From a bacterium (lineage in GTDB: Bacteria > Patescibacteriota > Minisyncoccia > Phycocordibacterales > UBA6899), in assembly GCA_043744555.1 (NCBI GenBank), contig JAYTUL010000001.1, positions 1 to 40,243 of the forward strand: a stretch of 40,243 nucleotides of DNA, read 5' to 3'. This document shows, one piece after another, positions 5,419 to 40,243 of this stretch (positions are counted from its first letter, which is position 1; the number at the start of each line of letters is the position of its first letter). The notes beneath the pieces were generated by a model. The model was given only the letters and a program-made list of their open reading frames with translations, did not search any database and was not told where the DNA came from. The translations under genes were made by a program, and so were the position numbers.

Positions 5419-6353
5419 GACGTGATTTTGTAAAACAAATTCTGATCGAAATGGAAAACAATAAGGATATTGTTTTCCTAACCGCAGATCTCGGCTTTAA
5501 TGCATTGGAAGAGATAAAGAAACGCTTACCCGAGCGGTTCATCAATGTGGGTATCGCAGAACAGCACATGATCGGAATGGCAGCGGGACTCGCGCTTGAG
5601 GGTAAAAAGGTAATCGCGTATTCTATCGCATCCTTCGCGTCGATGCGCCCATATGAACAGATCCGCACGGATGTCTGTTACCATAATCTTGATGTAATCA
5701 TAATCGGCACTGGTGGGGGTGTGAATTACCCCACACACGGTGTGACCCATCATACACTTGAGGATGTGGCAATCATGAACGTCCTTCCTAATATGAAAGT
5801 GCTATCACCTGCCTATTCTTGGGAAGCGGTTGAGGCCACAAAGGCATTGATAAAAGAAGGAGGTCCCGCATATATGCGCCTCGGCAAAAGCCCTGGAATT
5901 GATTATTCTCAACCACACTTTAAGTTCGCCCTTGGGCGTGGATTTGTGGTGCGTAAAGGAGGACAAATACTCCTGATCGCGACCGGAAATATTCTCGATA
6001 TTGTCGATAGGGCGAGAGCGATAATAGAAAAAGATCTTGGTATGAGTGTCACTGTCCTCAGTATTCCCTCGATCAAGCCGCTCGACGAGAAACTCATCAT
6101 CAAACACGCAAAAATTGCTGAGGGTATTTTCACCATAGAAGAACACAGCGTGATTGGCGGACTCGGTTCACTTGTAGCCTCACTTTTGTGGAAGAATGGT
6201 GTTCCGAAGAAAAAATTTCACTCACTCGGCTTTCCTGATGTATACCAGAAAGCTGTCGGTGATCGCGAGCACCTGCTTGAACTCGTAGGCATTGAAGCAA
6301 ATGCAATGGCAAATAACATAGCCAAGATAATGAGGGTGGTAATTAGTAAATAA
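5415..6353 (+). CDS. Transketolase, C-terminal (pyrimidine-binding/C-terminal domain) subunit
   Basis: FINVGIAEQHMIGMAAGLA and GVTHHTLEDVAIMNVLPNMKVLSPA. ATGA overlap with the N-terminal subunit gene. Confidence 0.9.
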   Translation: MRRDFVKQILIEMENNKDIVFLTADLGFNALEEIKKRLPERFINVGIAEQHMIGMAAGLALEGKKVIAYSIASFASMRPYEQIRTDVCYHNLDVIIIGTGGGVNYPTHGVTHHTLEDVAIMNVLPNMKVLSPAYSWEAVEATKALIKEGGPAYMRLGKSPGIDYSQPHFKFALGRGFVVRKGGQILLIATGNILDIVDRARAIIEKDLGMSVTVLSIPSIKPLDEKLIIKHAKIAEGIFTIEEHSVIGGLGSLVASLLWKNGVPKKKFHSLGFPDVYQKAVGDREHLLELVGIEANAMANNIAKIMRVVISK

Positions 6354-24426: not shown

Positions 24427-25185
24427 ATGTATAACCAAAGAAAAGAAAAAATTGTTGCAATTATTGAGGCGCGCATGACATCAAGCCGATTACCCGGAAA
24501 GGTGCTTATGCCGATCGCAGGTATGCCTGCGCTCGAAATGTTGATCACGCGCCTAAAACGAAGTAAATACATAGATGCTATCTGTGTCGCCACGACGACA
24601 AACAAGGAGGATGATCCCGTTATTGCTTTGGCTCAAAAATTAAATGCAGGAACCTTCCGAGGAAGTGAAAGTGATGTCCTTGGCAGAGTCTTGGGTGCAG
24701 CTGAGTCCATGCAAGCCGATCTCTTGGTAGAGATCACGGGTGATTGTCCGTTTGAAGATCCTCTGCTTATTGACCAGGGAATTGAAGAATTTTTCGCACA
24801 TGACGTTGATGTTTCCACAAACCTGATGAAAGAAACATTCGCAATCGGATTTGATGTACAAGTTTATCCGGTCAAAGTCTTAGCTGAAGTAGATAAGCTC
24901 ACTCAAGAACCGATTGATCGTACGCATGTTTCTTATTACATATATCAACATCCGGAGAAATATCGTGTATATAATTTTGAAGCGGACCCAGAACATTACG
25001 GACCGGAGCATCGTTTAACTCTGGATGAAAAGGCTGATTATGAGGCGCTTTGCACTATTGCAGATGCTTTGTATCCTCAAAACCCTGATTTTTCGGCGAA
25101 GGATATCACGTTGTATCTTCGAGCGCACCCTGAAGTAGTTGCTATCAACCAAAATGTGCGTCAAAAAGAATATCATGAACTCTAA
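24427..25185 (+). CDS. Cytidylyltransferase-family protein (SpsF/acylneuraminate cytidylyltransferase-like)
   Basis: From the ATG at 24427 (the track start 24400 is a GTG): KIVAIIEARMTSSRLPGKVLMPIAGMP...ICVATT..EDD. Confidence 0.8.
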   Translation: MYNQRKEKIVAIIEARMTSSRLPGKVLMPIAGMPALEMLITRLKRSKYIDAICVATTTNKEDDPVIALAQKLNAGTFRGSESDVLGRVLGAAESMQADLLVEITGDCPFEDPLLIDQGIEEFFAHDVDVSTNLMKETFAIGFDVQVYPVKVLAEVDKLTQEPIDRTHVSYYIYQHPEKYRVYNFEADPEHYGPEHRLTLDEKADYEALCTIADALYPQNPDFSAKDITLYLRAHPEVVAINQNVRQKEYHEL

Positions 25186-26167
25186 TTCTAGAAAAAGATC
25201 ATATACTGCAGTTATTTTTGGGGTAGGTCGAATGGGTGCTGGTTTTGATGATCCTCGATCTAAACACATTCTTTCTCATGCTCACGCTCTTACAATGCAT
25301 TCGCGCTTCACACTTTCTGGTGTGACCGATATTGATCGTGCGCAGGGAGAAAAAGAAGCCCTGAGGTGGAAAACCGAGTTCTTCGCAGACGCAAGCGAGA
25401 TGTTGGAAAAAAATAAGCCTGATGTTGTCATTATTGCAACACCCTCTTATGCACATGCCGAACTCCTGCAAAAAGTTGCCACAACAAATCCCAAGCTCAT
25501 AATTTGTGAAAAGCCAGTAATTAGCAGTGCAGAAGAAGGAGTACAACTTCGTAAGTATTTTGCAAAAAAAAATACCCAGATCTTGATCAATTTTCCAAGG
25601 CGTTTTGATCCTGTGATACAAAAAGAGAGGGATCTGCTCATCAAGGGAAAATATGGTCGGGTCATTTCAGCGAATGCAATATACTCAAATGGGATCTTGA
25701 ATAATGGCTCGCACATCATGGACTTGGCAAGGTTTTTTTTCGGTGAAGTGGTTTCGCTAAAAGCACTTGACGGTGTTGCCGATCATGGAAACGATGATCC
25801 AAGTATTGCAGGTTACGCAACGTTTAAGCGATGTCCGCAGTTTTCTCTAATGACGGGTGATGAACGAGAATATTCAGTATCTGAGTTTGAGATATTTGCC
25901 GAACGTAAGCGTTTGCGGTTCACAGATTTTTTTCTCACGCTGAGAACCCAGAATATCATTGCTGATCCTGTTTTTAAGGGTTTTCGTGGATTGGGGCAGC
26001 AAAAAGAAATCAAGACACAATATTCAAACTCATTAATGAATATGCTCGACCATGCGGTATCCGTGATCGAGGGCAAAGAAACCCCCCGCTCCACACTTGA
26101 AGAAGGCATCAGGACACAAGAAGCATGCCTTACATTATTAAGATCATTTCGCAAAAGCCATGAGTAA
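25175..26167 (+). CDS. Gfo/Idh/MocA-family NAD(P)-dependent oxidoreductase (WbpB-like sugar dehydrogenase candidate)
   Basis: From the ATG at 25175 (the track start 25139 is a TTG): AVIFGVGRMG, DVVIIATPSYAHAELL, LIICEKP, INFPRRFDP. Confidence 0.85.
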   Translation: MNSNSRKRSYTAVIFGVGRMGAGFDDPRSKHILSHAHALTMHSRFTLSGVTDIDRAQGEKEALRWKTEFFADASEMLEKNKPDVVIIATPSYAHAELLQKVATTNPKLIICEKPVISSAEEGVQLRKYFAKKNTQILINFPRRFDPVIQKERDLLIKGKYGRVISANAIYSNGILNNGSHIMDLARFFFGEVVSLKALDGVADHGNDDPSIAGYATFKRCPQFSLMTGDEREYSVSEFEIFAERKRLRFTDFFLTLRTQNIIADPVFKGFRGLGQQKEIKTQYSNSLMNMLDHAVSVIEGKETPRSTLEEGIRTQEACLTLLRSFRKSHE

Positions 26168-27491
26168 ACTTGCAATAAACGGAGGTGAGCCGATACGAAG
26201 TAAAGAAAAACTTTTCCCAGCATATAATACGATCGGTAAAGAAGAAAAAGAAGCGGTTCTACGTGTCCTTGATTCCGGAGTCCTCTCGAAATATTTTGGA
26301 AGTTGGGATCCTAGTATGCCGGCAGAAAAGCAAGATTTCTACGGAGGACCTGAAGTGCGCAAGCTTGAGCAAGAATGGGCAAAAAAATTTGGTGTTAAAC
26401 ATGCTGTCGCGATGAACTCTGCAGCCTCAGGCCTTATCGCGGCGATCGGAGCGATCGGTATAGAACCGGGGGATGAGGTCATTGTCTCGCCGTATACCAT
26501 GGTCATTTCTGCGACTGCTCCCTTGTTTTATGGGGCAATACCAGTCTTTGCGGATGTGGAACCTGAATATTTTTGTTTGGACCCAAGATCGGTTGAAGCC
26601 AAGATTACACCTCGTACCAAAGCGATCATTGTGGTCGATATTTTAGGACAGCCGTACAATGCTGATGCGATCAATGCGATCGCAAAAAAGCACGGCATTG
26701 CGGTGATCGAAGATGCTGCTCAAGCACCAGGGGCGATGCATAAAGGACGTTACGCAGGAACTCTGGGGGACATAGGGGTCTATTCTCTCAATTACCATAA
26801 GCACATCCATTCAGGAGAGGGAACACTTGTGGTGACGAACGATGATCGACTGGCTGAACGTCTGCAACTTATTCGTAATCACGCCGAAGCCGTTGTTCCT
26901 GACAAGGGGATCACTGATCTCGTTAATATGGTCGGCTATAATTTTCGCCTCACGGAAATTCAGGCCGCCATCGCATGTGCACAGCTCGCAAAGCTTGATG
27001 ATCTCATTACTGAGAGACAGAAAAATTGCGCATACCTTGCAGAACGCTTAGGAAAGATCCCTGGAATTATACCAGTCGCTATCAGGGCTGAGAGCACACA
27101 TGCATACTATGTGCAGCCATTTTTGTTCGATGCCGATGTTATGGGTTGCAAGCGTGATAAGTTTATTGAGGCGATAAGGGCAGAGTTGCCGGCGACCTCC
27201 CTTCGTGAAAGCGACGGGCCTCTTATCGTGGGAGGTTACGCAAGACCACTTTACTTACTTCCAGTTTTTCAGCAACAGGTCGCTTTCGGCTCTAAGGGGT
27301 ACCCTTTCCGTTCAGAATTTTATAAAGGCAAAACTCAGTATGAAAAAGGCACCTGTCCTGTCGCGGAAAATCTTTATCAGGAAAAACTTTTTTATCATGA
27401 AATGATGCGCCCCGGCATGAGTAAGAGTGATCTTGATGATGTGGTGGCGGCATTTCAAAAAGTTTATGAGTATCGCGATGAACTTCGTTAG
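26160..27491 (+). CDS. DegT/StsC-family PLP-dependent aminotransferase (long form)
   Basis: LAINGGEPIR, AMNSAASGLIAAIGA, DILGQP, VYSLNYHKHIHSGEGTLVVTND (PLP lysine), GYNFRLTEIQAAIACAQL. Confidence 0.9.
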   Translation: MSKLAINGGEPIRSKEKLFPAYNTIGKEEKEAVLRVLDSGVLSKYFGSWDPSMPAEKQDFYGGPEVRKLEQEWAKKFGVKHAVAMNSAASGLIAAIGAIGIEPGDEVIVSPYTMVISATAPLFYGAIPVFADVEPEYFCLDPRSVEAKITPRTKAIIVVDILGQPYNADAINAIAKKHGIAVIEDAAQAPGAMHKGRYAGTLGDIGVYSLNYHKHIHSGEGTLVVTNDDRLAERLQLIRNHAEAVVPDKGITDLVNMVGYNFRLTEIQAAIACAQLAKLDDLITERQKNCAYLAERLGKIPGIIPVAIRAESTHAYYVQPFLFDADVMGCKRDKFIEAIRAELPATSLRESDGPLIVGGYARPLYLLPVFQQQVAFGSKGYPFRSEFYKGKTQYEKGTCPVAENLYQEKLFYHEMMRPGMSKSDLDDVVAAFQKVYEYRDELR

Positions 27492-27493
27492 TC

Positions 27494-28420
27494 ATGCGAG
27501 CGTCACAAAAAAAACAAAAACCCGAAGTGCTGGTAGTTGCCTATGAAGCCGGGGGGAGTGAGGTCATTGCTGCCTATATCAAAAAGCATAAAGATCAAAA
27601 AATATTCCATATTTATGCGGGTGGCCCTGCTGCGAGAATATTTCGGCGTGAACACTTACATCCTAAACGCATAGAAGACACGCAAGAGAGCGTCGTCGGG
27701 ATAGTAGAAAGACATCGTAACGTAGAGTTTGTGCTTACGGGTACAGGCGTGGAGACGAAAATTGAATTTCGTGCGATAAAAGAATCAAAACGTCGTGGAT
27801 TAAAGACGTTCGCTTATCTTGATTCGTGGGTAAATTATCGGGAACGTTTCCGTTATCCGCATAAAAAATGGAAAGAAGACCTTCCTGATGAATTATGGGT
27901 GGGAGATAAATATGCTCTTTTGCTTGCCCGACGCTTATTTCATAGCTCCATGCGAATTCGTTATGTGAAGAATGAGTATTTTGGCGGCATCGTCGAAAGA
28001 TTCAATAAAAGTGTATCTCAATTTGACACAGCAAAACAACTTTTGTTTTTAAGTCTGGGTCTGACTCCTGGCGTGCAAGAAATATTCGGTGAGCTATTAT
28101 ATCATTTGTCCCGCACAAAAAACCCGCCCACTGTACGTGTGCGTTTCCATCCCTTTGATCAAAGGGATCGTTACGACAAATTGATCAAGCAGTACCGTGG
28201 GAAAGTGCGGGTGATAAAATCTAAAGAAAAAGATATCGTTAGTGACCTACTCTATGCGAGAGTGGTCGTCGGCACTGAAACAGTAGCAATGGTCGCGGCG
28301 GTTCTGGCTGGAAGAAGAACTATCAGTATCAGAACCCCAGGGAAAAAACCCGAACTTCCATTTCCCAAGATCATTCATGTGCATTCTGCGAAAGAAGCGG
28401 TAAACTCAATCGAAACATGA
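27494..28420 (+). CDS. Hypothetical protein, possibly a GT-B/PseG-SpsG-like fold
   Basis: 308-aa ORF tightly packed in the operon. The C-terminal LLYARVVVGTETVAMVAAVLAGRRTISI resembles the GT-B C-terminal helix region. No catalytic motif recognised. Confidence 0.4.
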   Translation: MRASQKKQKPEVLVVAYEAGGSEVIAAYIKKHKDQKIFHIYAGGPAARIFRREHLHPKRIEDTQESVVGIVERHRNVEFVLTGTGVETKIEFRAIKESKRRGLKTFAYLDSWVNYRERFRYPHKKWKEDLPDELWVGDKYALLLARRLFHSSMRIRYVKNEYFGGIVERFNKSVSQFDTAKQLLFLSLGLTPGVQEIFGELLYHLSRTKNPPTVRVRFHPFDQRDRYDKLIKQYRGKVRVIKSKEKDIVSDLLYARVVVGTETVAMVAAVLAGRRTISIRTPGKKPELPFPKIIHVHSAKEAVNSIET

Positions 28421-29262
28421 AACAGATGAACATAAATGACCTACCGCTTTATTCTGCCTGGCCTGCTAGGCTATTGGGACTAACTCCATTTACCTTTAAG
28501 GAGCGCACGAGAACAAAAGTACTAAAAGAATATGATCAAGAAAAATTTAGTGCTTTACTGGAATATTTTCATTCCTCTTCTTCTAAGCTTAACGCGGAGA
28601 AAATGAGAGAATTTGAGTGGGGTGATCTCGGTGCCGAAACATGTTATTCACGCGGACAAAAGCTTTATGTTGATAGTGCAGGTAAAATACTTGAACTTGA
28701 AAGAAAACTTTTTATTAGCGCCTTTAAGGCTCTCATGCCGAGATGTGATACTGTCGTTGAGCTGGGTGCTGGATACGGCCACAATCTAGCACTATTAGAG
28801 CACGTATATCCCGATAAAGAATTCATTGGCGGTGAGTTTTCTCCCAATGGAGTGTCACTCGGACGGCAGATTTTAAGTCAGCGTAAAATTACAATGACAC
28901 AGTTCGACTATTTTGATTCAGAATGGCAGCTATTCAATAAATTAAGAGGCAAAAGAATTTTAGTTTTTACTTATCATAGTGTAGAAATGTTGAAAGAAGC
29001 TCGTTTATTTTTTGAAAAGCTTGAAGTCTACAAAAACGATATTGTTGATATTTTACTTTTTGAGCCCCTCTATGAGGTAGAAAACAGCAATACGATGCTT
29101 GGGTTATTGCGGAAGAAATATATAGATGCCAATGATTACAATAGAGATCTCGATAGTGTAATAAGTAAAACCTCGGGTCTAACTGTCATTGAGCATGAAG
29201 ATGACTATTTCGGCTCAAACCCGCTCTTTGCTCAGGCGAAACTTCATTTACGCTTTAGATAG
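28417..29262 (+). CDS. Class I SAM-dependent methyltransferase-like protein
   Basis: VVELGAGYGHNLALL (motif I) followed by FIGGEFSP, and later ILVFTYHSVE. ATGA overlap with the upstream gene. Confidence 0.6.
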   Translation: MKQMNINDLPLYSAWPARLLGLTPFTFKERTRTKVLKEYDQEKFSALLEYFHSSSSKLNAEKMREFEWGDLGAETCYSRGQKLYVDSAGKILELERKLFISAFKALMPRCDTVVELGAGYGHNLALLEHVYPDKEFIGGEFSPNGVSLGRQILSQRKITMTQFDYFDSEWQLFNKLRGKRILVFTYHSVEMLKEARLFFEKLEVYKNDIVDILLFEPLYEVENSNTMLGLLRKKYIDANDYNRDLDSVISKTSGLTVIEHEDDYFGSNPLFAQAKLHLRFR

Positions 29263-29274
29263 AATTTTAATTGC

Positions 29275-30339
29275 ATGAGACTTAAAGAATACGAAGGAAA
29301 AGAATTATTTCGAAAGCATGGCATCGCTACGCCAGTAAGTTTACTCATGAAAGAAAAGGATGTAACAATTCCCTCAACCTTCCCAGTCATGCTTAAATCT
29401 CAGGTGCTGGTAGGTGATCGAAAAAAGAAAGGCGGAATTCTGAAAGTAGTTACTAAGAATGAATTTTTGCATGTCATCCAGGAACTTTTTTCCCTCCCAA
29501 TTGATGGTGAATTACCTAATGTAATACTTGTTGAAGAGTTGGTTAACTATGTTGCAGAATATTATGTAAGTTTTTCGTATTCGAGTGAATTTCGTACTCC
29601 GGTATTGGTACTGAATACAGTTGGCGGAAGCGGTGTAGCCAGTGGCGTGATAATTCCTATAAATGTTTTGCTCGGATGCACAGAGGGATTTGCTAAAAAT
29701 GCGCTTCTTAGGGCTAATATAAAACCGACTGAAGCCATTATTCAGGTGGTCATGAATCTCTGGAGAGCATTTACTGAAGAACATCTCGTGCTTGCCGAGA
29801 TCAATCCACTTTTTGTTCTTAAAGATGAGAGTGTGGTTGCGGGCGATGCAAAGGTTATCCGTGATGATGCATTGCTTGAAAATGTACCTAAGCCATTTGT
29901 GAGTCTTGGCGGTGATATAGCAATTATCGCCTCTGGCGGCGGTGCGTCGATGTTAAATATCGACATCCTCATGCGTGCGGGGGGGAAACCTGCGAATTAT
30001 GTGGAATATTCAGGTAACCCGCCAGCTTCTGTTGTAGAAGAGCTCACAAAACGAGTACTTTCTCAGCCGGGGATTCGTGGGCTGTGGGTCGTGGGTGGTA
30101 CGGCAAATTTTACTGATATATATGAGACAATATCAGGATTTGTTTCGGGTTTGCGTAATCTGTCCAAGAAGCCCGAATACCCCATCGTAATAAGAAGGGA
30201 CGGACCACGACAAAAAGAGGCAAGGGCTATGCTTGAAGATGTTGCCCGAAACGAGGGATACAATATACATGTGTTTGGACCTGAAATATCGATGGCAGAA
30301 TCAGCTCGGATTTTAATAGACCTTATGAAACAAGCATGA
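29275..30339 (+). CDS. Succinyl-CoA synthetase beta / citryl-CoA synthetase / ACL-beta-like ATP-grasp subunit
   Basis: MRLKEYEGKELFRKHGI, KSQVLVGDRKKKGG, AEINPL, AGDAKV, IIASGGGASMLNIDIL..GGKPANYVEYSG, VVGGTANFTD. At 354 aa it is shorter than a typical SucC. Confidence 0.85.
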   Translation: MRLKEYEGKELFRKHGIATPVSLLMKEKDVTIPSTFPVMLKSQVLVGDRKKKGGILKVVTKNEFLHVIQELFSLPIDGELPNVILVEELVNYVAEYYVSFSYSSEFRTPVLVLNTVGGSGVASGVIIPINVLLGCTEGFAKNALLRANIKPTEAIIQVVMNLWRAFTEEHLVLAEINPLFVLKDESVVAGDAKVIRDDALLENVPKPFVSLGGDIAIIASGGGASMLNIDILMRAGGKPANYVEYSGNPPASVVEELTKRVLSQPGIRGLWVVGGTANFTDIYETISGFVSGLRNLSKKPEYPIVIRRDGPRQKEARAMLEDVARNEGYNIHVFGPEISMAESARILIDLMKQA

Positions 30340-31241
30340 GTATTCTTGTCGACAAAAATACCGTAGTGCTTGTGCAGGGTATTACCGGCAAAGAAGGTGC
30401 TCGCGCTGCAAAAGAAATGGCTTCGTATGGTACCCGCGTGTGTGCAGGCATAACCCCAGGTAAGGGGGGTCAGGTGACCCCTGAGGGTGTGCCTATCTTC
30501 AATACTGTCGCAGAAGCCATGATCCAGTTTCCAGAGATAAACACCTCGCTCATTGCAGTCCCCGGAAAGTTTGTAGGTGCTGCAGCGGAGGAGTCTATCA
30601 ACGCACAAATACCGCTTATAAACATTTTGAGCGAAAGAGTTCCAATGCTTCATGTCGCGCGCATCATTGCCCTCGCGCGCCAAAATTCAATTACTGTTGT
30701 CGGACCTTCGTCAGTAGGGATCATATCTCCAAGCAAGGGGAAGGTTGGAAGCATAGGCTCATCGGGGCTTGCCGAGAAGATTTTTGTTTTAGGACCAGTG
30801 GGGGTGATATCGAAGAGTGGTGGGATGACGGCTGAGATTTCACGAATTTTGACTGAAGGCGGTTTTGGGCAGAGCACGGCAATAGGCATAGGAGGAGACC
30901 CGCTTATTGGCTCTGATTTCTGTGATATCGCCATACTGCTTGAGGATGATGCAGAAACAAAGTTTATCGTAATATTTGGAGAAATAGGAGGTACTTATGA
31001 GGAGAAGCTCGCCGAGGCAATTGCATCAAAAAAGATCACAAAGCCTGTGGTCGCACTCATTGCTGGAATATTTGCTGAAACGCTTCCACTCGGAACAACA
31101 CTTGGTCATGCGGGTGCTATCGTAGAGGGAGGCAAGGGCAAAGCAAGTGCAAAAATTACAGCACTCAAGAATGCAGGAGCATATATCGCAGAGACTCCCG
31201 AAGAGATTGTTGTTATACTGAAAAAACTAGTGAGTAGTTAA
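30336..31241 (+). CDS. Succinyl-CoA synthetase alpha / citryl-CoA synthetase / ACL-alpha-like CoA-binding subunit
   Basis: Colinear with SucD as I remember it: MSILVDKNT..VQGITGKEG, GITPGKGG, GPSSVGIISP, ISKSGGMTAEI, GFGQSTAIGIGGDP, FGEIGG, and the phosphohistidine loop LGHAGAIVEGGKGKA. Confidence 0.9.
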   Translation: MSILVDKNTVVLVQGITGKEGARAAKEMASYGTRVCAGITPGKGGQVTPEGVPIFNTVAEAMIQFPEINTSLIAVPGKFVGAAAEESINAQIPLINILSERVPMLHVARIIALARQNSITVVGPSSVGIISPSKGKVGSIGSSGLAEKIFVLGPVGVISKSGGMTAEISRILTEGGFGQSTAIGIGGDPLIGSDFCDIAILLEDDAETKFIVIFGEIGGTYEEKLAEAIASKKITKPVVALIAGIFAETLPLGTTLGHAGAIVEGGKGKASAKITALKNAGAYIAETPEEIVVILKKLVSS

Positions 31242-31253
31242 AGTAAATCAAAA

Positions 31254-31967
31254 ATGAAATTCGACACAAAAATAAGCAAGACAGTGGAAGGCGAACATCA
31301 AATCTATGGTCACCCTATTTCTGAGCTGATGCAAAAGCACACCTTCACTGAAGCTGTTCATCTTTTATATACAGGAAAGTTACCTTCCGATGGTGAACGC
31401 ATGCTTCTAGACACAATGCTTGTTTCTGCGACAGAGCATGGAGTCGAAGCCCCATCGCTTTATGTTCCTCGAATTAGTGCTGCCTCAGGAAATTCTGTAC
31501 ACACTGCTATTGCTGCGGGGATCCTTGCAATAGGCGAGAATCATGGGGGAGCAGGAGAAGCAGCAGCACGCCTTTTTGCTCGACATGAAGATCCAGAATT
31601 TTTAGTAAGTGAATATCTAAAGGCCAAGAAGCATATGCCTGGGTTCGGGCATCGAGTTTACAAAGACGAAGACCCTCGTGCAACTATTGTTTACAACCAA
31701 GCAAAAGAAGCGGGTGTGTCACTCGCATCCTTTGAAAAGGCTTACGCCATAGAATCAGAGCTCGAAAAGCAAAAAGGGGAAAAACTCCCTTTAAATATTG
31801 ATGGGGCGTTCGCAGCGGGCGTACTTTCGCTTGGCATGGACGCTCGCGCAGGCAAAGCCCTTTTTGTGCTTGCTCGTGTATCAGGAATGGGAGCCCACGC
31901 GATAGAAGAATTGAATCAGGGAAACGGCTACCTAAGGCTTGCCTCAGAAGATAAAAAATTTAATTGA
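31254..31967 (+). CDS. Short citrate-synthase-like protein (citryl-CoA lyase / ACLY CSH-module-like)
   Basis: Only 237 aa. It keeps GFGHRVYKDEDPRA and LPLNIDGAFAAG, the motifs of the catalytic half of citrate synthase, and lacks the N-terminal ~150 aa of true citrate synthases. Confidence 0.75.
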   Translation: MKFDTKISKTVEGEHQIYGHPISELMQKHTFTEAVHLLYTGKLPSDGERMLLDTMLVSATEHGVEAPSLYVPRISAASGNSVHTAIAAGILAIGENHGGAGEAAARLFARHEDPEFLVSEYLKAKKHMPGFGHRVYKDEDPRATIVYNQAKEAGVSLASFEKAYAIESELEKQKGEKLPLNIDGAFAAGVLSLGMDARAGKALFVLARVSGMGAHAIEELNQGNGYLRLASEDKKFN

Positions 31968-32013
31968 ATGATCCGCTTGCTACCTAAACGCATCCTAGAG
32001 TATTATCATATTT

Positions 32014-32571
32014 ATGATTTTGAAGGAACCAATTAAAGGAAATAGATTATATTTGCGTTCAATGGACGAAAAGGATGCGTCGCCCGACTATGTCAGCTGG
32101 CTCAATGACACTGAAGTAAACAAATTTCTTGATACTAAAAGTTCAAGCATCGATGAGCAGGCAAGGTACATAAATATCAAAAATGCTCAGGCGGACTCAC
32201 TTTTACTTGGAATATTTACAAATGAAAACAAGAGACATGTTGGTACTATTAAACTCGAGCCAATAGATGTGCAAAACGGACAAGCAACTATTGCTGTAAT
32301 GTTGGGGGACAAATCGGCTTGGGGTAAGGGTCTTGGCGGAGAAGCAATGAGACTGTTGATTGACTACGGTAAAAAAAAATTATTTATAAAAAAAATAAAT
32401 TTAGGAGTAAGATCTGAAAATATCACAGCGATCAAATCTTATGAAAAGTTGGGCTTCATAGAAATTAAAAGGACCCCTCAATTAATGCCTCACGGATCAA
32501 ATTCGTATGAAAATGTGTTGATGGCCTTGGATGTTAGCAATAATTCTGAAATATATGAGACGATGCAGTAA
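32014..32571 (+). CDS. GNAT-family N-acyltransferase (RimJ/RimL-like)
   Basis: LYLRSMDEKDA..YVSWLND.EV..FL, IAVMLGDKSAWGKGLGGEAMRLLIDYG (acyl-CoA pyrophosphate loop), SENITAIKSYEKLGF. Confidence 0.8.
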   Translation: MILKEPIKGNRLYLRSMDEKDASPDYVSWLNDTEVNKFLDTKSSSIDEQARYINIKNAQADSLLLGIFTNENKRHVGTIKLEPIDVQNGQATIAVMLGDKSAWGKGLGGEAMRLLIDYGKKKLFIKKINLGVRSENITAIKSYEKLGFIEIKRTPQLMPHGSNSYENVLMALDVSNNSEIYETMQ

Positions 32572-33703
32572 ATGTGTAACACCTGAAACTCAGGATATGA
32601 TTAGTTTTGACAAGGATGGGGTGTGCGCAACATGTCGAAATGTTGAGTATAAGCAAGAAAAGATCGATTGGGTTGAACGAGAAAAGATGCTTGGGGAAAT
32701 TCTTGATAAACACCGCGGTAAAGGAGTTTACGACTGCATTATTCCATTCAGCGGAGGGAAAGACAGTACCTTTGCAGCTTATATCTTGGCTACAAAATAT
32801 AAACTCAAGCCCCTCATTGTAAACTTCGACCACGGCTTCTATCGTCCCAAAACACTTGCTAATGTTGAAAGGACTGTAAAAAAGCTGGGTATCGGGTATC
32901 TCAAGTTTAAGCCTGACTGGCAGGTTGTTAAAAAATTAATGCGCGTCTCACTTGAGCGAAAGGGTGACATCATGTGGCACTCGCATTGTGGAATTTTTGC
33001 TTACCCCATGCACATCGCTATAAAATTTAATATTCCACTTATAATTTGGGGTGAGCCAAACTCAGAGTACAGTAGTGTATATAGTTATGAAGATGATGAA
33101 CAAGTTGACGAGCAACGCTTTAATCGTCTTGTAAATTTGGGTATCAATGCTGAAGATATGCTCGGGATGCTTGATGGGTCAGTGACCGCAAATGATCTTT
33201 TTCCATACACCTACCCTAATGCAAAAGATCTTAAAGCGATCGGCTATCGCTCATTTTGCCTCGGGACATACATTCCATGGGATACAAGAAAGCAATCAGA
33301 GCTAATTCACGAGAAGATCGGTTGGGATGGAGATCATGTGGAAGGAATTCCGTTTGAGCGATATTGGTATGAAAAAGTCGAAGATGCATTCCAGGGTATC
33401 CAAGATTATCTGAAATGGGTCAAGCGAGGCTTTTCGCGCATGACACATTTGGCGTCCATCGACATTCGCAATGGTCGAATGACCAGAGAAGAGGGTCTTA
33501 AGTATGTTGAAAAGTATGAAGGTTACCGCCCAGCCAGTCTTGATGTCTTTCTTCAGGCCATGGATATGACAGAGGAGAAATTCAATGAGATCGCACTTCG
33601 CCATGTGGTCGCGCCTCATGTGCCGCCTGATCTAAGTAAAGTTCCGCGGGGACAAGAGCTCTGGGACCAACAATTATGGACGATTAATAACGATATTGAC
33701 TGA
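32555..33703 (+). CDS. N-acetyl sugar amidotransferase (WbpG/PseA/WbuX-like PP-loop enzyme)
   Basis: MRRCSKCVTPETQDMISFDKDGVCATC (zinc ribbon) and IIPFSGGKDSTFAAY (PP-loop SGGxDS). ATG at 32555 is preferred; 32531 is also an ATG. Confidence 0.85.
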   Translation: MRRCSKCVTPETQDMISFDKDGVCATCRNVEYKQEKIDWVEREKMLGEILDKHRGKGVYDCIIPFSGGKDSTFAAYILATKYKLKPLIVNFDHGFYRPKTLANVERTVKKLGIGYLKFKPDWQVVKKLMRVSLERKGDIMWHSHCGIFAYPMHIAIKFNIPLIIWGEPNSEYSSVYSYEDDEQVDEQRFNRLVNLGINAEDMLGMLDGSVTANDLFPYTYPNAKDLKAIGYRSFCLGTYIPWDTRKQSELIHEKIGWDGDHVEGIPFERYWYEKVEDAFQGIQDYLKWVKRGFSRMTHLASIDIRNGRMTREEGLKYVEKYEGYRPASLDVFLQAMDMTEEKFNEIALRHVVAPHVPPDLSKVPRGQELWDQQLWTINNDID

Positions 33704-33707
33704 AGTT

Positions 33708-34328
33708 ATGATAGTTGTGGTTGATTACGGACTTGGTAATTTATTTTCTGTCGCAAAGGCTTTTGAAATGATTGGAGCCGAGGTCAAGATCTCTGCTGAT
33801 CTCGAAGATATCAAGAGGGCCGAGCGACTCATCCTTCCCGGAATAGGTGCATTCGGCGACGGGATAGAAAATTTACGAAAAGGGGACATGATCCCCGTAC
33901 TATATGAGCAGGTAGTCATGAATAAAAAACCATTTTTAGGGATATGCTTGGGTATGCAGCTATTAGCTGACGTGGGATTTGAATATGGTAAATATGCCGG
34001 ATTGTCATGGGTCTCTGGAAAAGTAGAAAAACTTGAGGTCGGGTCCGATCTTAAAATCCCTCATGTCGGATGGAATGATGTCATTCTGCAAAAAGAAAGT
34101 CCATTATTTGAAGGAATCAAGAATGGATCGGATTTTTATTTTGTACATAGTTATCAACTGGTCTGTGATAACGCTTCGGATGTTTTGGCCAGTACTTTTT
34201 ATGGTGGGCAAATTACTGCCGCGGTACAGAAAGATAACATATTTGCAACTCAGTTTCATCCAGAAAAGAGCCAAGAAGTTGGGTTAAAATTGCTGGAGAA
34301 CTTCGTTAATTGGAAACCAGTATGTTAA
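33708..34328 (+). CDS. Glutamine amidotransferase, imidazole-glycerol-phosphate synthase HisH paralog (WbuY-like)
   Basis: From the ATG at 33708 (the track start 33696 is a TTG): MIVVVDYGLGNLFSV, LILPGIGAFG, GICLGMQLL (nucleophile Cys), HSY, FHPEKS. Confidence 0.9.
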   Translation: MIVVVDYGLGNLFSVAKAFEMIGAEVKISADLEDIKRAERLILPGIGAFGDGIENLRKGDMIPVLYEQVVMNKKPFLGICLGMQLLADVGFEYGKYAGLSWVSGKVEKLEVGSDLKIPHVGWNDVILQKESPLFEGIKNGSDFYFVHSYQLVCDNASDVLASTFYGGQITAAVQKDNIFATQFHPEKSQEVGLKLLENFVNWKPVC

Positions 34329-35080
34329 AAACGCGATTAATACCAACACTACTGCTCAAGGATGGTCGTATGATCAAAACAAAACAGTTTGATGAGTATC
34401 AAGATGTTGGCAATCCGCGAACAGTTGCTAAAGTCTACGATGCGCAGAGAGCCGATGAGCTCATATTTTTAGATATTACTGCGACCACAGAAAATAGACA
34501 CTTTCTTGCGGATACAGTCACAGCTGTTGCGGAAGAGTGTTTTATGCCTCTAACGGCAGGGGGAGGGATAAGAACAGTGGCTGATGCACGAGAATTGCTT
34601 CAGAGGGGTGCAGATAAGATCGCGATTAATACGGCAGCGATAAAAGACCCCCAGTTCATAACAGAATTAGCCAAGAAGTTCGGACGCTCAACGGTCATTG
34701 TTTCAATTGATTATAAAAAAAATACTCTCGGGGAAAATGAAGTATTTGTTGAACGTGGACAGAAATCGACTGGGCGAGATCCAATCGAATGGGCAAAAGA
34801 AGTCGAGCGAATGGGAGCAGGCGAGATTTTGCTCACTTCTATTGAGCGTGAAGGCATGATGGTTGGGTATGATCTTGAGCTAATAAGAAAAGTTTCAGAC
34901 AGTGTCAATATACCAGTCATCGCTTCAGGAGGAGTAGGTTCAATTGACGACTTTGTAAGAGGAATACACGAAGGACATGCCACAGCCGTTGCTGCAGCGA
35001 GTATATTTCATTTTACCGATCAAAGCATTTTTAAGGTACATTCGCATATGAGAGAAGCTGGCTTGTCTGTAAGGCGTTAG
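34322..35080 (+). CDS. Cyclase-like subunit, HisF paralog (WbuZ-like)
   Basis: From the ATG at 34322 (the track start 34310 is a TTG): [77 protein letters not shown]. Confidence 0.9.
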
Positions 35081-35219: not shown

Positions 35220-36284
35220 ATGACTAATTCTCAGCCTCTTATTAATGTACTGGTTACTGGTGGTTGCGGTTTTATCGGATCCAATTTTATTCGACAACTT
35301 TATCATACTCACCCGAATTATCGCATTTATAATTTGGATGCTCTTACCTATGCGGGCAATTCAGAAAATCTTACTGATATTGAAAAGCTTGAAGTGGGTC
35401 GAAATGAAAACGAACGTCGCTATGTCTTCGTTCGCGGCGATGTCGCCGACAGAGAACTATTAAGGGTGCTTTTTGAGGAGCATGGATTTACATATATTTT
35501 TCATTTTGCTGCGGAAACGCACGTTGATCGCTCTTATTCTAATCTCGTAGATTTTATACGCACAAATGTTGATGGCACTATTATGCTCGCAACTATGGCT
35601 ATGAAATTTGGCGGTAAAATGGTGCATATATCGACAGATGAAGTTTACGGTTCTATTCCAGAAGAAGTAGGATTCGTAGATGAAGATGCTGCATTTCATC
35701 CCTCAAACCCATATGCAAGTTCAAAAGCAGCAGCAGATATGCTTCTTCAGTCATTTATGCGAACTTACAATGCCCCGATCAATATTGTTCGCGCAACAAA
35801 TAATTATGGTTGTTTTCAGTACCCAGAGAAACTCCTTCCGCTCGCAATGACAAATTTGTTAGAAGATGTGCAAATACCTATACATGGCGCCGGAACTCAC
35901 TTGCGACAATGGATACACGTCGAAGATTTTGCCCGAGCAATTGATCTTGTATCTCTAAATGCCCCAACAGGAGCAATTTATAATGTAGCTGGTGAGCATG
36001 CTTCGAATCTCGAAGCGTTATCAATAATTGCAACTTATCTTGGAAAAAATATTGATGAATATAAATACCACACTCCCGATAGACCGGGTGCAGATTATCG
36101 TTATGCCATTGATTCGTCAAAACTTGAAAGAGAACTTGGATGGAAAAGGCAACATGATTTTCGCTTGAGCATCCTCTCTGTTGTCGATTGGTATATCGCC
36201 AATCGTCCTTGGTGGGAAAAGATCAGAATGAAAAAAGAATTTACTGATAATTACAAGAAACAGTCGCAAGCAAAATACAGTTGA
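35220..36284 (+). CDS. rfbB: dTDP-glucose 4,6-dehydratase (second copy, divergent paralog)
   Basis: VLVTGGCGFIGSNF, HFAAETHVDRS, ISTDEVYG, YASSKAAADMLLQSF, TNNYGCFQYPEKLLPL, HLRQWIHVEDF. Confidence 0.85.
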   Translation: MTNSQPLINVLVTGGCGFIGSNFIRQLYHTHPNYRIYNLDALTYAGNSENLTDIEKLEVGRNENERRYVFVRGDVADRELLRVLFEEHGFTYIFHFAAETHVDRSYSNLVDFIRTNVDGTIMLATMAMKFGGKMVHISTDEVYGSIPEEVGFVDEDAAFHPSNPYASSKAAADMLLQSFMRTYNAPINIVRATNNYGCFQYPEKLLPLAMTNLLEDVQIPIHGAGTHLRQWIHVEDFARAIDLVSLNAPTGAIYNVAGEHASNLEALSIIATYLGKNIDEYKYHTPDRPGADYRYAIDSSKLERELGWKRQHDFRLSILSVVDWYIANRPWWEKIRMKKEFTDNYKKQSQAKYS

Positions 36285-37528: not shown

Positions 37529-38638
37529 ATGAAACATATACCTTACGGACATCAGAACATTGATACAAATGACATTGAAAGTGTCGTCACAACTCTACAC
37601 TCCGAGTGGCTTACTCAAGGACCGAAAATAAAAGAGTTTGAAAACGCTCTCGCTAAAGCTACGGGGGCAAAGTATGCGGTACTTGTTTCAAACGGCACTG
37701 CGGCGCTCCACCTCGCGTATCTTGTCGCGGGAATCGGCAAGGGGGATGAGGTGATCACTACACCGAACACATTCGTAGCGACAACGAACATGCTTCTTGA
37801 GGTTGGTGCGAAACCGGTGTTTTGCGACATACGAGAAGATACCTACAACATAGATGAAACCAAGATTGAGAAGTTAATCACAAAAAAGACTAAGGCCATC
37901 GTACCCGTACATTTCGCCGGAAACCCAGCTTCAATGGATAAGATTTATGCTCTAGCTAAAAAACATAAACTTTTGGTTATCGAAGACGGCGCACAGGCGC
38001 TCGGGGCTTTTTATGGAAAAAAGAGAACAGGCGGAGACCGCGGTGATATGGTGACGTTTAGTTTTCATCCAGTCAAATCAATTACGACAGGGGAGGGTGG
38101 AGCAATTGTCACTAATAATAAAAAATACTACGAACATCTTCTTTTGTTGCGCAGCCATGGCGTCACCAAGGACAGGAATGGATTTCATACTATGGCTGAA
38201 CGGGGATACAATTATCGACTATCTGATATTAACGCTGCACTTGGACTTTCTCAAATTGCGCGTCTTGATCAATTTATAGAAAAGCGAAGACAAGTGGTGG
38301 GGTGGTATCGAGAAGCACTTAAAGGCGTTGAAGACATAATTCTTCCCGAAGAGACCGAAGGGGCAACGAGCGCACACCATCTCTATGTCATACGCACTCG
38401 ATCAGCCAAAAAACGCATCCCCCTCTATAATTATTTACGCAAAAATGGTATTGGCACAATGTTCCACTACACCCCTGTCTACAGTCATCCTTATTATAGA
38501 AAGAATGGGTACGCGAAAATTCACTTTCCAGTGACAGACATGTACCACAAAACGGCCTTCTCTATCCCACTTTTTGTAGATTTATCACAGGCAGATGTCA
38601 AATATATTGCTGGGATAATCAAAAAATTCTTCGTTTAA
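37529..38638 (+). CDS. DegT-family aminotransferase, PseC-like (UDP-4-keto-6-deoxy-sugar 4-aminotransferase type)
   Basis: MKHIPYGHQNIDTNDIESVVTTLHSEWLTQGPKIKEFE is a typical PseC-type N-terminus. TFSFHPVKSITTGEGGAIVTN carries the PLP lysine. GYNYRLSDINAALGLSQ. Confidence 0.85.
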   Translation: MKHIPYGHQNIDTNDIESVVTTLHSEWLTQGPKIKEFENALAKATGAKYAVLVSNGTAALHLAYLVAGIGKGDEVITTPNTFVATTNMLLEVGAKPVFCDIREDTYNIDETKIEKLITKKTKAIVPVHFAGNPASMDKIYALAKKHKLLVIEDGAQALGAFYGKKRTGGDRGDMVTFSFHPVKSITTGEGGAIVTNNKKYYEHLLLLRSHGVTKDRNGFHTMAERGYNYRLSDINAALGLSQIARLDQFIEKRRQVVGWYREALKGVEDIILPEETEGATSAHHLYVIRTRSAKKRIPLYNYLRKNGIGTMFHYTPVYSHPYYRKNGYAKIHFPVTDMYHKTAFSIPLFVDLSQADVKYIAGIIKKFFV

Positions 38639-38645
38639 TGGCATT

Positions 38646-39674
38646 ATGAAAAATAAAGAGACTCGTCATTTGTCCGTAAATAAAAATACTCCAATTCTTG
38701 TGATTGGATTTGGATCTATTGGACAGCGTCACTTCCGTAATCTTAAGCTATTAGGATATAAGGATATTGGAGTGAATGATGTCAACCCGAAAAAACTGGT
38801 AAATGTTGATGCTGAGTTCGTGCCCAAGTTAACTGATAAGGTTTTTTGTCGCTTCCCGGTTGTGTTTGTTTGTAATCCGTCTGATTTACATATGACAACA
38901 GCCTTAAGGGCAGCAAAAATGGGCTGTCATCTCTTCATCGAAAAGCCACTGGCACTTGAGATGCGTTTGATCAAGAAGTTTGATGCTTTTATAAAAAAAA
39001 ATAAGCTTCACGTTATGATCGGCTGTAATTACCGCTTTAATGAAGGCTTTAAATTACTACAAAAAAAATTACAACAAAAAATATTAGGAAAGCCGCTCTG
39101 GGTTAATGTTGCTGTAGGTTATGATCTGCGCACTGCACGTCCTGGTACTTCATATAAACAGACTTATGCCGCATCGCTTGCTCAGGGTGGAGGTGTGCTT
39201 ATTGATTCGGGTGCGCATGTCATTGACTACCTGCTTTCATTATTTGGAGAACCGAGTGTTGCGTATGTAAATCGTAAAAACCTTTTACTAGACATGGATG
39301 CTGAAGATTTTGCTGTTATTGAATTAGAGCTTCCCAACAATGTGTTTGCTATGATCGAGCTTGATTACTTTAGTAACCCACCTCATAATTTCATTGAAAT
39401 CAGGTGTGAAAAAGGATTAATTCGTTGGGATGTCGTAAAGAGTGAGGTTGTGTGGATAACCTCACATGGTACAAAAAAGGTAAAAAAATTATATCATGGA
39501 ATGGATGCGACTTTGAGGCGCAACGATATGTTCATTAAGGAAGTTATATATTTTATGGAAGTTCTAAGTGGTAAAAAATCCCCCGTGTCTGACCTGTCTC
39601 ATGCCCGTAAGGTCGTGGATATATTGAGCAAACTTTCATCATCGGCAAAATATCATAAACTTAATAAAATATAA
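38646..39674 (+). CDS. Gfo/Idh/MocA-family oxidoreductase (second copy)
   Basis: ILVIGFGSIGQRH, VFVCNPSDLHMTTAL, LFIEKPLA, IGCNYRFN. Confidence 0.8.
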   Translation: MKNKETRHLSVNKNTPILVIGFGSIGQRHFRNLKLLGYKDIGVNDVNPKKLVNVDAEFVPKLTDKVFCRFPVVFVCNPSDLHMTTALRAAKMGCHLFIEKPLALEMRLIKKFDAFIKKNKLHVMIGCNYRFNEGFKLLQKKLQQKILGKPLWVNVAVGYDLRTARPGTSYKQTYAASLAQGGGVLIDSGAHVIDYLLSLFGEPSVAYVNRKNLLLDMDAEDFAVIELELPNNVFAMIELDYFSNPPHNFIEIRCEKGLIRWDVVKSEVVWITSHGTKKVKKLYHGMDATLRRNDMFIKEVIYFMEVLSGKKSPVSDLSHARKVVDILSKLSSSAKYHKLNKI

Positions 39675-39688
39675 TAATTTATAAAAAA

Positions 39689-40243
39689 ATGAAAAAACCA
39701 TCGGTACTTAAATCACAAAAGCTATGGAATGAAGCAAAGAAACTTATCCCCGGAGGTTCACAGCTCTTAAGTAAGCGCGCGGAAATGTTGCTTCCAGAAC
39801 AATGGCCAGCTTATTTTTCAAGATCAAAAGGTGTCGAGGTGATCGATCTTGATGGCAATAAATTTATTGATATGGAGCGCATGTCTGTTGGCGCATGCAC
39901 ACTCGGCTATACCGACCCAGATGTAAACAGAGCGGTAAAGAGAGTTATTGATCAGGGGACTATGACAACCCTCAATGCCCCTGAAGAAGTAGAGCTTGCA
40001 AAGTTACTTATCAAAATCCATCCTTGGGCTAATATGGTGCGTTATGCTCGAACCGGAGGGGAAGCGATGTCTGTGGCAATACGTATTGCCCGAGCGCATT
40101 CAGGTAAAGACAAAGTCGCCTTTTGTGGCTATCATGGCTGGCACGATTGGTATCTTTCAACGAACATTGCTTCAAAAAAAAATCTCGACGATATCCACCT
40201 CCCAGGACTTTCACCAAAAGGAATTCCAAAAGGATTAGCCGGT
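39689..40243 (+). CDS. Class-III (glutamate-1-semialdehyde aminomutase-like) PLP aminotransferase, 3'-truncated by the window end
   Basis: Not in the ORF track because it has no stop codon. ATG at 39689, open for 185 codons to the last base: MKKPSVLKSQKLWNEAKKLIPGGSQLLSKRA...VIDLDGNKFIDM...YARTGGEAMSVAIRIARAHSGKDKVAFCGYHGWHDWY. Confidence 0.8.
   Translation, partial: MKKPSVLKSQKLWNEAKKLIPGGSQLLSKRAEMLLPEQWPAYFSRSKGVEVIDLDGNKFIDMERMSVGACTLGYTDPDVNRAVKRVIDQGTMTTLNAPEEVELAKLLIKIHPWANMVRYARTGGEAMSVAIRIARAHSGKDKVAFCGYHGWHDWYLSTNIASKKNLDDIHLPGLSPKGIPKGLAG

Follow-up and report, generated by a model that had tools for sequence, protein, structure and literature searches.

A 40,243-nt stretch of contig JAYTUL010000001.1 (NCBI GenBank assembly GCA_043744555.1, positions 1 to 40,243 of the forward strand; hereafter the window) carries three consecutive genes, here called the trio, that most likely encode, as judged from their sequences, an unfused, two-step ATP-citrate lyase (ACL) inside a tightly packed same-strand glycan operon. 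Our comparative analysis makes it probable that the trio converts citrate, ATP and CoA to acetyl-CoA and oxaloacetate and that it thereby feeds the N-acetylation of amino sugars by neighboring gene products. The enzyme family is already known, as are genes of the citryl-CoA synthetase (CCS)/citryl-CoA lyase (CCL) clade in bacteria of the Candidate Phyla Radiation (CPR); their coupling to glycan and GNAT acetyltransferase genes was not met with in the literature searched.

Gene order and domain content of the trio

The three open reading frames (ORFs) lie on the plus strand at 29275-30339, 30336-31241 and 31254-31967 and encode proteins of 354, 301 and 237 amino acids, respectively. The first two genes overlap by 4 nt (ATGA) and the third one starts after a 12-nt gap. 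An earlier note on this DNA, made from the sequence alone, had singled out these ORFs, and we have recovered all three at the same positions, with every motif quoted there found in the translations. Alignment to human ACLY placed the first, second and third proteins on residues 273-412, 550-798 and 848-1032, respectively. Since they hit successive ACLY segments, the gene order equals the ACLY domain order, as the earlier note had claimed. The order large subunit, small subunit and lyase, on one strand, was found in all 42 non-redundant loci in which the three genes are full length, and because of this recurrence the arrangement is not a matter of chance. The GC content is 0.467 at positions 30001-32000 (trio), compared with 0.405-0.425 at 28001-30000, 31001-33000 and 32001-34000.

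The first gene (29275-30339) encodes the large subunit of a ligase of the CCS/ACL type, with an ATP-grasp domain and an ACL-type citrate-binding domain. Pfam detected ATP-grasp_2 with 75 bits and Citrate_bind (PF16114) with 83 bits (cutoff 26.8). The best match in the Protein Data Bank (PDB) was the CCS large subunit of Hydrogenobacter thermophilus (6hxq_B, 9e-44), with the beta subunit of succinyl-CoA synthetase (SCS) matching at 6e-31. In NCBIfam, the protein scored 140.8 bits with SucC (cutoff 375.55) and 73.7 bits with the MtkA-type model (cutoff 604). Its EYSG, ANFT and RR motifs fall in the alignment on human ACLY G309, N346/T348 and R379, four residues which we take to be citrate contacts (Sun et al. 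2010), and all four are kept in the window protein. Two other papers refer to these ACLY residues, only in connection with inhibitor docking. Among 43 CPR large subunits, the positions of G309, T348 and R379 are kept in all and that of N346 in 36. At position 380, Asp stands in place of Gly/Asn. SCS-beta, in contrast, has GGI(T/V) where the trio protein has ANFT, and a Val at the R379 position. By these alignments, the predicted substrate-site residues of the large subunit match those of ACL and CCS, not those of SCS.

We have built neighbor-joining (NJ) trees with Escherichia coli GltA, PrpC and SucC plus PDB fragments as references. In the tree of the large-subunit C-terminal domain, which held few references, the CPR sequences were monophyletic and sister to ACL (Chlorobium, human), followed by the Hydrogenobacter CCS, with SCS-beta (E. 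coli SucC, T. aquaticus) lying outside this grouping.

The second gene (30336-31241) encodes the small, SucD-like subunit, with a CoA-binding domain and the phosphohistidine loop LGHAGA. Pfam assigned CoA_binding, Ligase_CoA and Succ_CoA_lig, and the loop, LGHAGAIVEGG, aligned with the phosphohistidine loop of SCS-alpha (MGHAGAII in 2yv2), in agreement with the colinearity to SucD that the earlier note had described up to this point. The score against the NCBIfam SucD model was 274.9 bits, below the cutoff of 336, and the PDB matches were SCS-alpha (2yv2, 1e-73) and the CCS small subunit (6hxq_A, 3e-52).

The product of the third gene (31254-31967) is a CCL-like protein with a truncated citrate-synthase fold, as assigned from Pfam, NCBIfam and PDB entry 6hxp_A. 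Of the Citrate_synt profile (357 positions), its 237 residues match the C-terminal portion alone (168-351). The top four NCBIfam models were all citryl-CoA lyases, the best citrate synthase model scoring 106 bits, and the best PDB match was the Hydrogenobacter CCL (6hxp_A, 1e-44, over its residues 7-238), with citrate synthases at 6e-24. The residues H97 (HGGA), H133 (GFGHRVY), D183 (NIDGA), R142, R208 and R228 were invariant across 18 lyase homologues of 46-100% identity. In the NJ tree, again with few references, the Hydrogenobacter CCL nested within the CPR lyase clade, and GltA, PrpC and the Bacillus subtilis citrate synthase lay outside.

These results bear out the argument from size and motifs by which the earlier note had read the short protein as a CCL. 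It had held that loss of the catalytic His/Asp, or branching inside housekeeping clades, would speak against its proposal; H97, H133 and D183 are invariant in the 18 homologues, and in our small NJ trees neither the lyase nor the large subunit branches within such clades. The profile searches that it had suggested matched all four families named (ATP-grasp_2, CoA_binding, Ligase_CoA and Citrate_synt), plus Citrate_bind.

The trio shares with CcsAB and Ccl of H. thermophilus (6hxq, 6hxp) the three separate polypeptides, the domain content, the catalytic triad and the citrate-site residues. The Hydrogenobacter enzymes, however, serve the reductive tricarboxylic acid (rTCA) cycle of an autotroph, whereas the trio stands in an amino-sugar and acetyltransferase context in CPR. 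The window large subunit is also shorter than that of the Hydrogenobacter CCS (354 vs. 429 amino acids), its C-terminal domain is slightly closer to ACL-beta than to this CCS (88 vs. 82 bits), and the small subunit is nearer to archaeal/bacterial SucD than to CcsB (251 vs. 181 bits). With ACL (AclAB, Chlorobium 6hxj; ACLY), the trio has in common the order and the EYSG/ANFT/RR motif type, and ACL is the sister of its large-subunit C-terminal domain in the NJ tree. Unlike ACL, the trio is unfused, with the small subunit and the lyase encoded by separate genes between which insertions occur in some loci, and its lyase is far closer to the free CCL (156 bits) than to the C-terminal module of ACL (69 bits). 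SucCD and MtkAB belong to the same superfamily and have the same two-subunit architecture as the window ligase, whose small subunit is SucD-like. The ligase nevertheless scores below the SucC and SucD cutoffs and has ANFT/RR instead of GGI(T/V)/R-V, SucC lies outside its clade, and no tricarboxylic acid (TCA) cycle neighbors were recognized around the trio.

Distribution and gene neighborhoods in Patescibacteria

Homologues of the lyase, down to 46% identity, came almost exclusively from metagenome-assembled genomes (MAGs) of CPR/Patescibacteria, including Wildermuth-, Yanofsky-, Andersen-, Lloyd-, Portnoy- and Colwellbacteria, Minisyncoccia and Paceibacterota, and several of them were already labeled "citryl-CoA lyase" by NCBI or JGI. 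Our collection, cited below as L001 and so on, comprised several long contigs besides 7 loci from genomes and 80 from metagenomes, and 77 loci were left after lyases at least 95% identical were collapsed. Genes in these loci were called heuristically, with ORFs having family hits being favored, and were labeled by means of seed proteins of known family and a local GNAT profile, with spot checks in Pfam and NCBIfam.

The linkage counts cover those 43 non-redundant loci in which five or more genes flank the trio, and we have scored what lies within five genes of it. A GNAT was present in 19 of them, directly adjacent to the trio in 15, a CofD/YvcK-family gene in 17, GlmS in 15 and a GlmU-like nucleotidyltransferase in six. 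Genes of the nonulosonic/amino-sugar or envelope type (NeuB, DegT, GFO, CTP_transf_3, Wzy_C, MurB, SDR) were represented in 15/43. Taken together, 38 of the 43 loci had at least one scored link (GNAT, GlmS, YvcK, GlmU-like or glycan gene).

This linkage is position-specific. GNATs accounted for 20 of the 124 genes adjoining or inside the trio, compared with 4 of the 267 genes at a distance of at least four genes (Fisher p 1e-7 with an odds ratio of 12.6, shared ancestry being ignored), and every GlmS and YvcK gene lay no farther than five positions from the trio (0/149 at greater distance). The trio-adjacent GNATs fell into at least five mutually unrelated BLAST clusters, and Pfam confirmed all those checked. 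In L008, for example, the order is GlmS (812 bits, equivalog), the trio, a GNAT, YvcK (331 bits, cutoff 196) and an archaeal-type bifunctional GlmU-like protein (254 bits, cutoff 292). YvcK is a UDP-GlcNAc-binding protein. The arrangements vary, with GlmS directly upstream of the trio, GlmS divergent downstream, or a GlmS-GlmU-YvcK-HAD series upstream. In an NJ tree of the concatenated trio, GlmS/YvcK/GNAT contexts occurred in every deep branch, and nonulosonic/amino-sugar clusters at about five separate places.

The trio is a conserved, lineage-wide module of CPR/Patescibacteria, most often located beside UDP-GlcNAc genes (GlmS, YvcK, GlmU-like). The earlier note had proposed a pathway-dedicated acyl-CoA generator; the functional tie to sugar genes is supported, but "dedicated" and "private" are too strong for a module spread over the lineage.

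Further genes recur around the trio. A GNAT of ~180 amino acids (Acetyltransf_3), kin of the window GNAT described below, lies between the small subunit and the lyase in L006 (1713-2258) and L022 (3502-4041). A protein of 117-138 amino acids recurs in L067 (8803-9186), L015, L050, L068, L074 and L092, its gene either separating those of the small subunit and the lyase or directly following the latter. By sequence it is similar to the "23S rRNA intervening sequence protein" family, four-helix bundles that are widespread in CPR. An MBOAT O-acyltransferase gene occurs one to three genes from the trio in L003 (6523-8013), L016 and L063, preceded in L003 and L016 by a conserved gene whose product (369 amino acids in L003) has no Pfam match. 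Beside YvcK, near the trio or its GNAT, a HAD-superfamily hydrolase (177-226 amino acids) is found in UDP-GlcNAc-type contexts in L069 (9715-10335) and seven other loci (e.g., L030, L037, L070), and it might act as a phosphatase or mutase on an amino-sugar phosphate. Upstream of the trio in L076 (1448-3330), L056 (3310-5109) and L077 there are genes for a DmpF-like acylating acetaldehyde dehydrogenase, a DmpG-like aldolase, a ~600-residue thiamine pyrophosphate (TPP) enzyme and an SDR, the DmpF/DmpG-like proteins being a potential second acetyl-CoA-forming pair beside the trio in a sugar context.

Candidates for citrate import or oxaloacetate removal were confined to single loci or sub-lineages. 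An MFS transporter gene (MFS_1, UNC-93-like) overlaps the lyase stop codon in L001 (10693-11874) and is also present in L005, only in this sub-lineage; it could encode a carboxylate importer, and in L001 a second multi-pass membrane protein follows it. In L085 only, a malic-enzyme-like gene (assigned by sequence; 3983-5125) lies two genes downstream of the lyase and could serve to dispose of oxaloacetate. A general oxaloacetate sink or citrate importer beside the trio was rejected on account of this restricted occurrence.

The glycan locus of the window

The 40-kb window is a glycan island with SDR dehydratases/epimerases, sugar nucleotidyltransferases, DegT aminotransferases, glycosyltransferases, many methyltransferases and a flippase. 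The genes around the trio described here are all on the plus strand. Upstream, a CTP_transf_3 cytidylyltransferase of the type activating CMP-sugar acids (24427-25185; Pfam 90 bits; syntenic in L002, L004 and L096) is followed by a GFO/IDH/MocA oxidoreductase (25175-26167; Pfam) and a DegT-family sugar aminotransferase of 443 amino acids (26160-27491), which scored 290 bits with Pfam DegT_DnrJ_EryC1 and 213 bits with the PseC model (cutoff 423). Next come a GT-B-fold protein of 308 amino acids (27494-28420) and a putative methyltransferase with weak matches only (28417-29262; Pfam Methyltransf_31 E 9e-4, sub-cutoff; NCBIfam Pse-associated methylase E 0.009), a position occupied in relatives by a PseB-type dehydratase.

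The 308-residue protein had 42 database homologues and no Pfam, NCBIfam or PDB sequence match. Its AlphaFold2 model (pLDDT 94.7) gave WecB, NeuC and MnaA as the top Foldseek hits (TM 0.67-0.73, E 3e-10), which makes the protein a candidate NDP-sugar 2-epimerase/hydrolase, possibly for the UDP-GlcNAc 2-epimerase-like (WecB/NeuC) step used in nonulosonic acid pathways. The GFO-DegT-GT-B block is conserved in L002, L004, L094, L095 and L096, with the GT-B protein always located after the GFO oxidoreductase and a DegT aminotransferase of ~440 residues in NeuB-type clusters, also outside CPR (L094, L095). This sub-block stands in NeuB clusters without the trio in the stretches retrieved for L095 and for L094 (a Burkholderiaceae MAG); therefore, the trio is probably a supply add-on and not part of the sugar chemistry itself. 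In the Burkholderiaceae NeuB/GFO/DegT/GT-B cluster, an AMP-binding acyl-activating ligase and a GNAT (L094, 1541-3445) take the place that the trio and GNAT have in CPR loci.

Downstream of the trio, a GNAT N-acetyltransferase starts 46 nt after the lyase gene (32014-32571; Pfam Acetyltransf_3 74 bits) and is weakly PseH-like (NCBIfam 42.9 bits, cutoff 93.1); its homologues adjoin the trio in L001 and lie inside it in L006 and L022. It is followed by a WbuX-type N-acetyl sugar amidotransferase for acetamidino formation (32555-33703; NCBIfam TIGR03573 357 bits, cutoff 203), whose ORF opens at 32531, the start at 32555 being that of the earlier note. Then come a HisH-like glutaminase partner, WbuY-type by position (33708-34328; Pfam GATase; NCBIfam HisH 242.9 bits), and WbuZ, a HisF-like glycosyl-amidation-associated protein (34322-35080; NCBIfam TIGR03572 305.8 bits, cutoff 299.7). 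Farther downstream are an SDR resembling NDP-hexose 4,6-dehydratases (35220-36284; NCBIfam dTDP-glucose 4,6-dehydratase 360.5 bits, cutoff 365.1), a PseC-type aminotransferase (37529-38638; NCBIfam TIGR03588 436.7 bits, cutoff 423.5), a second GFO/IDH/MocA oxidoreductase (38646-39674; Pfam; syntenic with L001 and L096) and an Aminotran_3-family aminotransferase cut by the window end (39689-40243; tblastn and translation).

Neither NeuB nor a PseB equivalog is encoded in the 40-kb window. The closest relative, L096, whose lyase is 89% identical, extends farther than the window does, with CTP_transf_3, DUF218, a GNAT, an aminotransferase and NeuB, and judging by it, NeuB probably lies just beyond the right end of the window. 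L096 also has a PseB-type SDR (Pfam), the GNAT and trio of L001 are immediately preceded by a PseB equivalog (427 bits, cutoff 408), and in L004 a NeuB/PseI-like gene, below both cutoffs, directly follows the lyase. From its gene content, the window locus is predicted to be a pseudaminic-acid-like nonulosonic acid cluster with acetamidino modification. With the acetamidino clusters for pseudaminic (Pse) and legionaminic (Leg) acid (PseB/C/H/G/I/F; WbuXYZ/PseA-type) it shares the PseC equivalog, WbuX, WbuZ, the PseH-like GNAT and CTP_transf_3. Pseudaminic-type chemistry needs several acetyl-CoA-dependent N-acetylations per sugar. No described Pse/Leg cluster with a CCS/CCL module is known to us, and literature searches returned none.

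The gene junctions listed in the earlier note (-11, -8, +2, -4, +12, -4, +12, +46, -17, +4 and -7 nt) were reproduced when the internal ATG starts at 25175, 32555, 33708 and 34322 were used. Past its 12-gene run, a 13th gene (35220-36284) continues on the same strand. Promoter- and terminator-like matches between 24000 and 36500 were no commoner than in shuffled sequences, a result that is silent for or against co-transcription.

The earlier note saw no other central-carbon gene in the 40 kb. A split transketolase pair at 4591-5418 (N-terminal TPP domain) and 5415-6353 (Pyr and C domains) is formally of such a family, the only other one in the window, although it stands among sugar-nucleotide genes, with an SDR epimerase on one side and a sugar nucleotidyltransferase and a 4,6-dehydratase on the other. 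The pair may perform a two-carbon branch-transfer step in sugar modification. The window also encodes a 557-residue fusion of the N-terminal and central domains of UDP-glucose/GDP-mannose dehydrogenase to a C-terminal S-adenosylmethionine (SAM)-dependent methyltransferase domain (14005-15678). Two ORFs of the glycan island, of 604 and 591 amino acids, have no Pfam family (93-1907, plus strand, and 11247-13022, minus strand).

Proposed acetyl supply, alternatives and implications

In the mechanism that we propose, the large and small subunits would form a citryl-CoA synthetase whose GHAGA-loop His is phosphorylated by ATP; citrate, bound in the ACL-type site, would receive the phosphoryl group, and attack by CoA would yield citryl-CoA. 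The short citrate-synthase-fold protein would then split citryl-CoA into acetyl-CoA and oxaloacetate. Neighboring acetyltransferases, here the PseH-like GNAT, would spend the acetyl-CoA, and the CoA set free would be recycled. The net reaction would be citrate + ATP + amino sugar -> N-acetyl sugar + oxaloacetate + ADP + Pi, with CoA acting only catalytically. What the sequences show directly is which domains and which residues at the catalytic and substrate sites are present, where the proteins fall in the trees, and that the gene order and the linkage by position are conserved. The substrate, the direction of the reaction and the co-transcription of the genes are inferred; the citrate would presumably come from the host or the environment.

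Acetyl supply, one of the two options considered in the earlier note, is favored because the lyase is always kept with an intact catalytic triad, because the citrate-site residues of the ACL/CCS type are conserved, and because the trio is found with at least five unrelated GNAT clusters and with GlmS/YvcK/GlmU-like partners, where the acyl group needed is acetyl. Several observations weigh against it. The substrate assignment comes from homology plus four residues whose roles are taken from earlier work on ACLY, one of which, N346, is replaced by Ser in 7 of the 43 large subunits. The small subunit resembles a generic SucD, and the lyase, with 208.6 bits, is ~3 bits under the NCBIfam NF004869 cutoff of 212. 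In principle, the ACL reaction can also run backward. The 46-nt gap between the lyase and the GNAT contains a weak promoter-like match (9/12), and neither a citrate transporter nor an oxaloacetate sink is evident in the window. As to the neighborhoods, common descent links the loci, and their independence is therefore overstated by the Fisher p-values; a GNAT lies within five genes in only 19/43 loci, and the targets of the small RimI-like GNATs may be proteins instead of sugars. Five of the 43 loci have no scored link at all; among these, however, L063 has genes for a GT2, a PMT-family glycosyltransferase and an MBOAT-like protein, and L061 and L064 have glycosyltransferase-like genes (judged by sequence).

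In the literature searched, nothing joined CCS/CCL genes with glycan, GNAT or GlmS contexts, and CPR/DPANN homologues appeared only as rTCA-related, in keeping with the remark of the earlier note that no described glycan pathway has such a module. A 2022 preprint placed CPR and DPANN sequences with CCS/CCL and discussed a syntrophic rTCA cycle, a 2025 paper listed aclAB as enriched in Saccharimonadia MAGs, and a survey of carbon-fixation pathways used CCS/CCL as rTCA markers. The trio could, along these lines, be a central-carbon set, whether as a relic, as part of a (syntrophic) rTCA cycle or as a reversed, ATP-yielding citrate synthase, with its co-location resulting from hitch-hiking. The closest characterized relatives do serve the rTCA cycle, the reaction catalyzed by ACL operates close to equilibrium, and the five unlinked loci would fit. 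Yet, among the labeled or Pfam-checked neighbors in the 77 loci, where many neighbors are unlabeled, no TCA or rTCA gene (2-oxoglutarate:ferredoxin oxidoreductase and fumarate reductase included) was recognized besides the single malic-enzyme-like gene of L085, and the linkage to GNAT, GlmS and YvcK is both position-specific and found across all deep branches of the trio tree. To our knowledge, CPR bacteria generally lack a TCA cycle, which also counts against this explanation, and we regard it as unlikely. Oxaloacetate could alternatively be the useful product, feeding aspartate or phosphoenolpyruvate (PEP; used by NeuB-type synthases and MurA), with acetyl-CoA as a by-product. NeuB and MurB genes near the trio in several loci would suit such a role, but no PEP carboxykinase, aspartate aminotransferase or similar enzyme was recognized among the labeled or Pfam-checked neighbors, and the tightest partner by position is the GNAT, an acetyl-CoA user, so that this possibility appears remote.

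Two other explanations keep the sugar context and change the substrate or the acyl group. The same chemistry might act on a citrate analogue (2-methylcitrate or citramalate), giving propionyl-CoA, or acetyl-CoA and another oxo-acid. That the substrate is read from few aligned residues, with Ser at the N346 position in part of the large subunits and Asp at position 380, leaves room for this, as does the presence of methylcitrate synthases among the citrate-synthase-fold enzymes. All four ACLY citrate-contact positions are nonetheless kept in the window protein, the lyase clade holds the biochemically characterized Hydrogenobacter CCL, and the GlmS/GlmU contexts call for acetyl; we find an analogue distinctly unlikely. 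The second option of the earlier note, a dicarboxylic acyl-CoA, belongs to a broader proposal in which the ligase activates malate, succinate or citrate and a non-acetyl acyl-CoA goes straight to the GNAT, producing an unusual N-acyl sugar. The GNAT begins a mere 46 nt after the trio, SCS-family ligases activate various acids, and the nonulosonic acid cluster of L094 has an AMP-binding ligase beside a GNAT in a comparable place. Such a route would, however, leave the always-present and catalytically intact lyase superfluous, the substrate-site residues are those of ACL/CCS and not of SCS, and the unrelated GNAT clusters and GlmS/GlmU-like partners need acetyl. A non-acetyl donor is thus very improbable. 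The idea that the lyase-like protein condenses acetyl-CoA with a keto-sugar to form a branched sugar was rejected for want of any support, the site residues being of the citryl-CoA type and the module also occurring beside plain UDP-GlcNAc genes.

CPR bacteria have tiny genomes, usually without a TCA cycle and lipid synthesis, and still need acetyl-CoA for peptidoglycan precursors and surface glycans. To the question of how they obtain building blocks, the trio beside GlmS/GlmU-like and N-acetyltransferase genes gives a testable answer, namely acetyl groups that would be derived from citrate. If acetyl supply is its function, the CCS/CCL homologues that surveys of CPR/DPANN genomes count as markers of the rTCA cycle and of carbon fixation would have to be reinterpreted, and the window would hold the first nonulosonic acid cluster with an acetyl-CoA supply of its own, as far as we have found.

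More tentatively, one can imagine an "acetyl economy" based on scavenged citrate, in which the trio would be the main or only acetyl-CoA route of CPR episymbionts and a small CoA pool would be cycled with the envelope acetyltransferases; GlmU-like enzymes, GNATs, MBOAT proteins and nonulosonic acid N-acetyltransferases might then be its users, a possibility we hold to be somewhat short of even. Under such an economy, the acetylation of wall and surface glycans would rely on a TCA intermediate that the host leaks or that is taken from it, and this metabolic dependency could be put to use in cultivation. In eukaryotes, ACLY likewise provides acetyl-CoA for acetylation outside the TCA cycle, a role of which the trio would be the prokaryotic counterpart. 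Comparative genomics thus points to a familiar citrate-cleaving system that would serve, in bacteria with reduced genomes, as an anabolic acetyl-CoA supply for the acetylation of envelope sugars.

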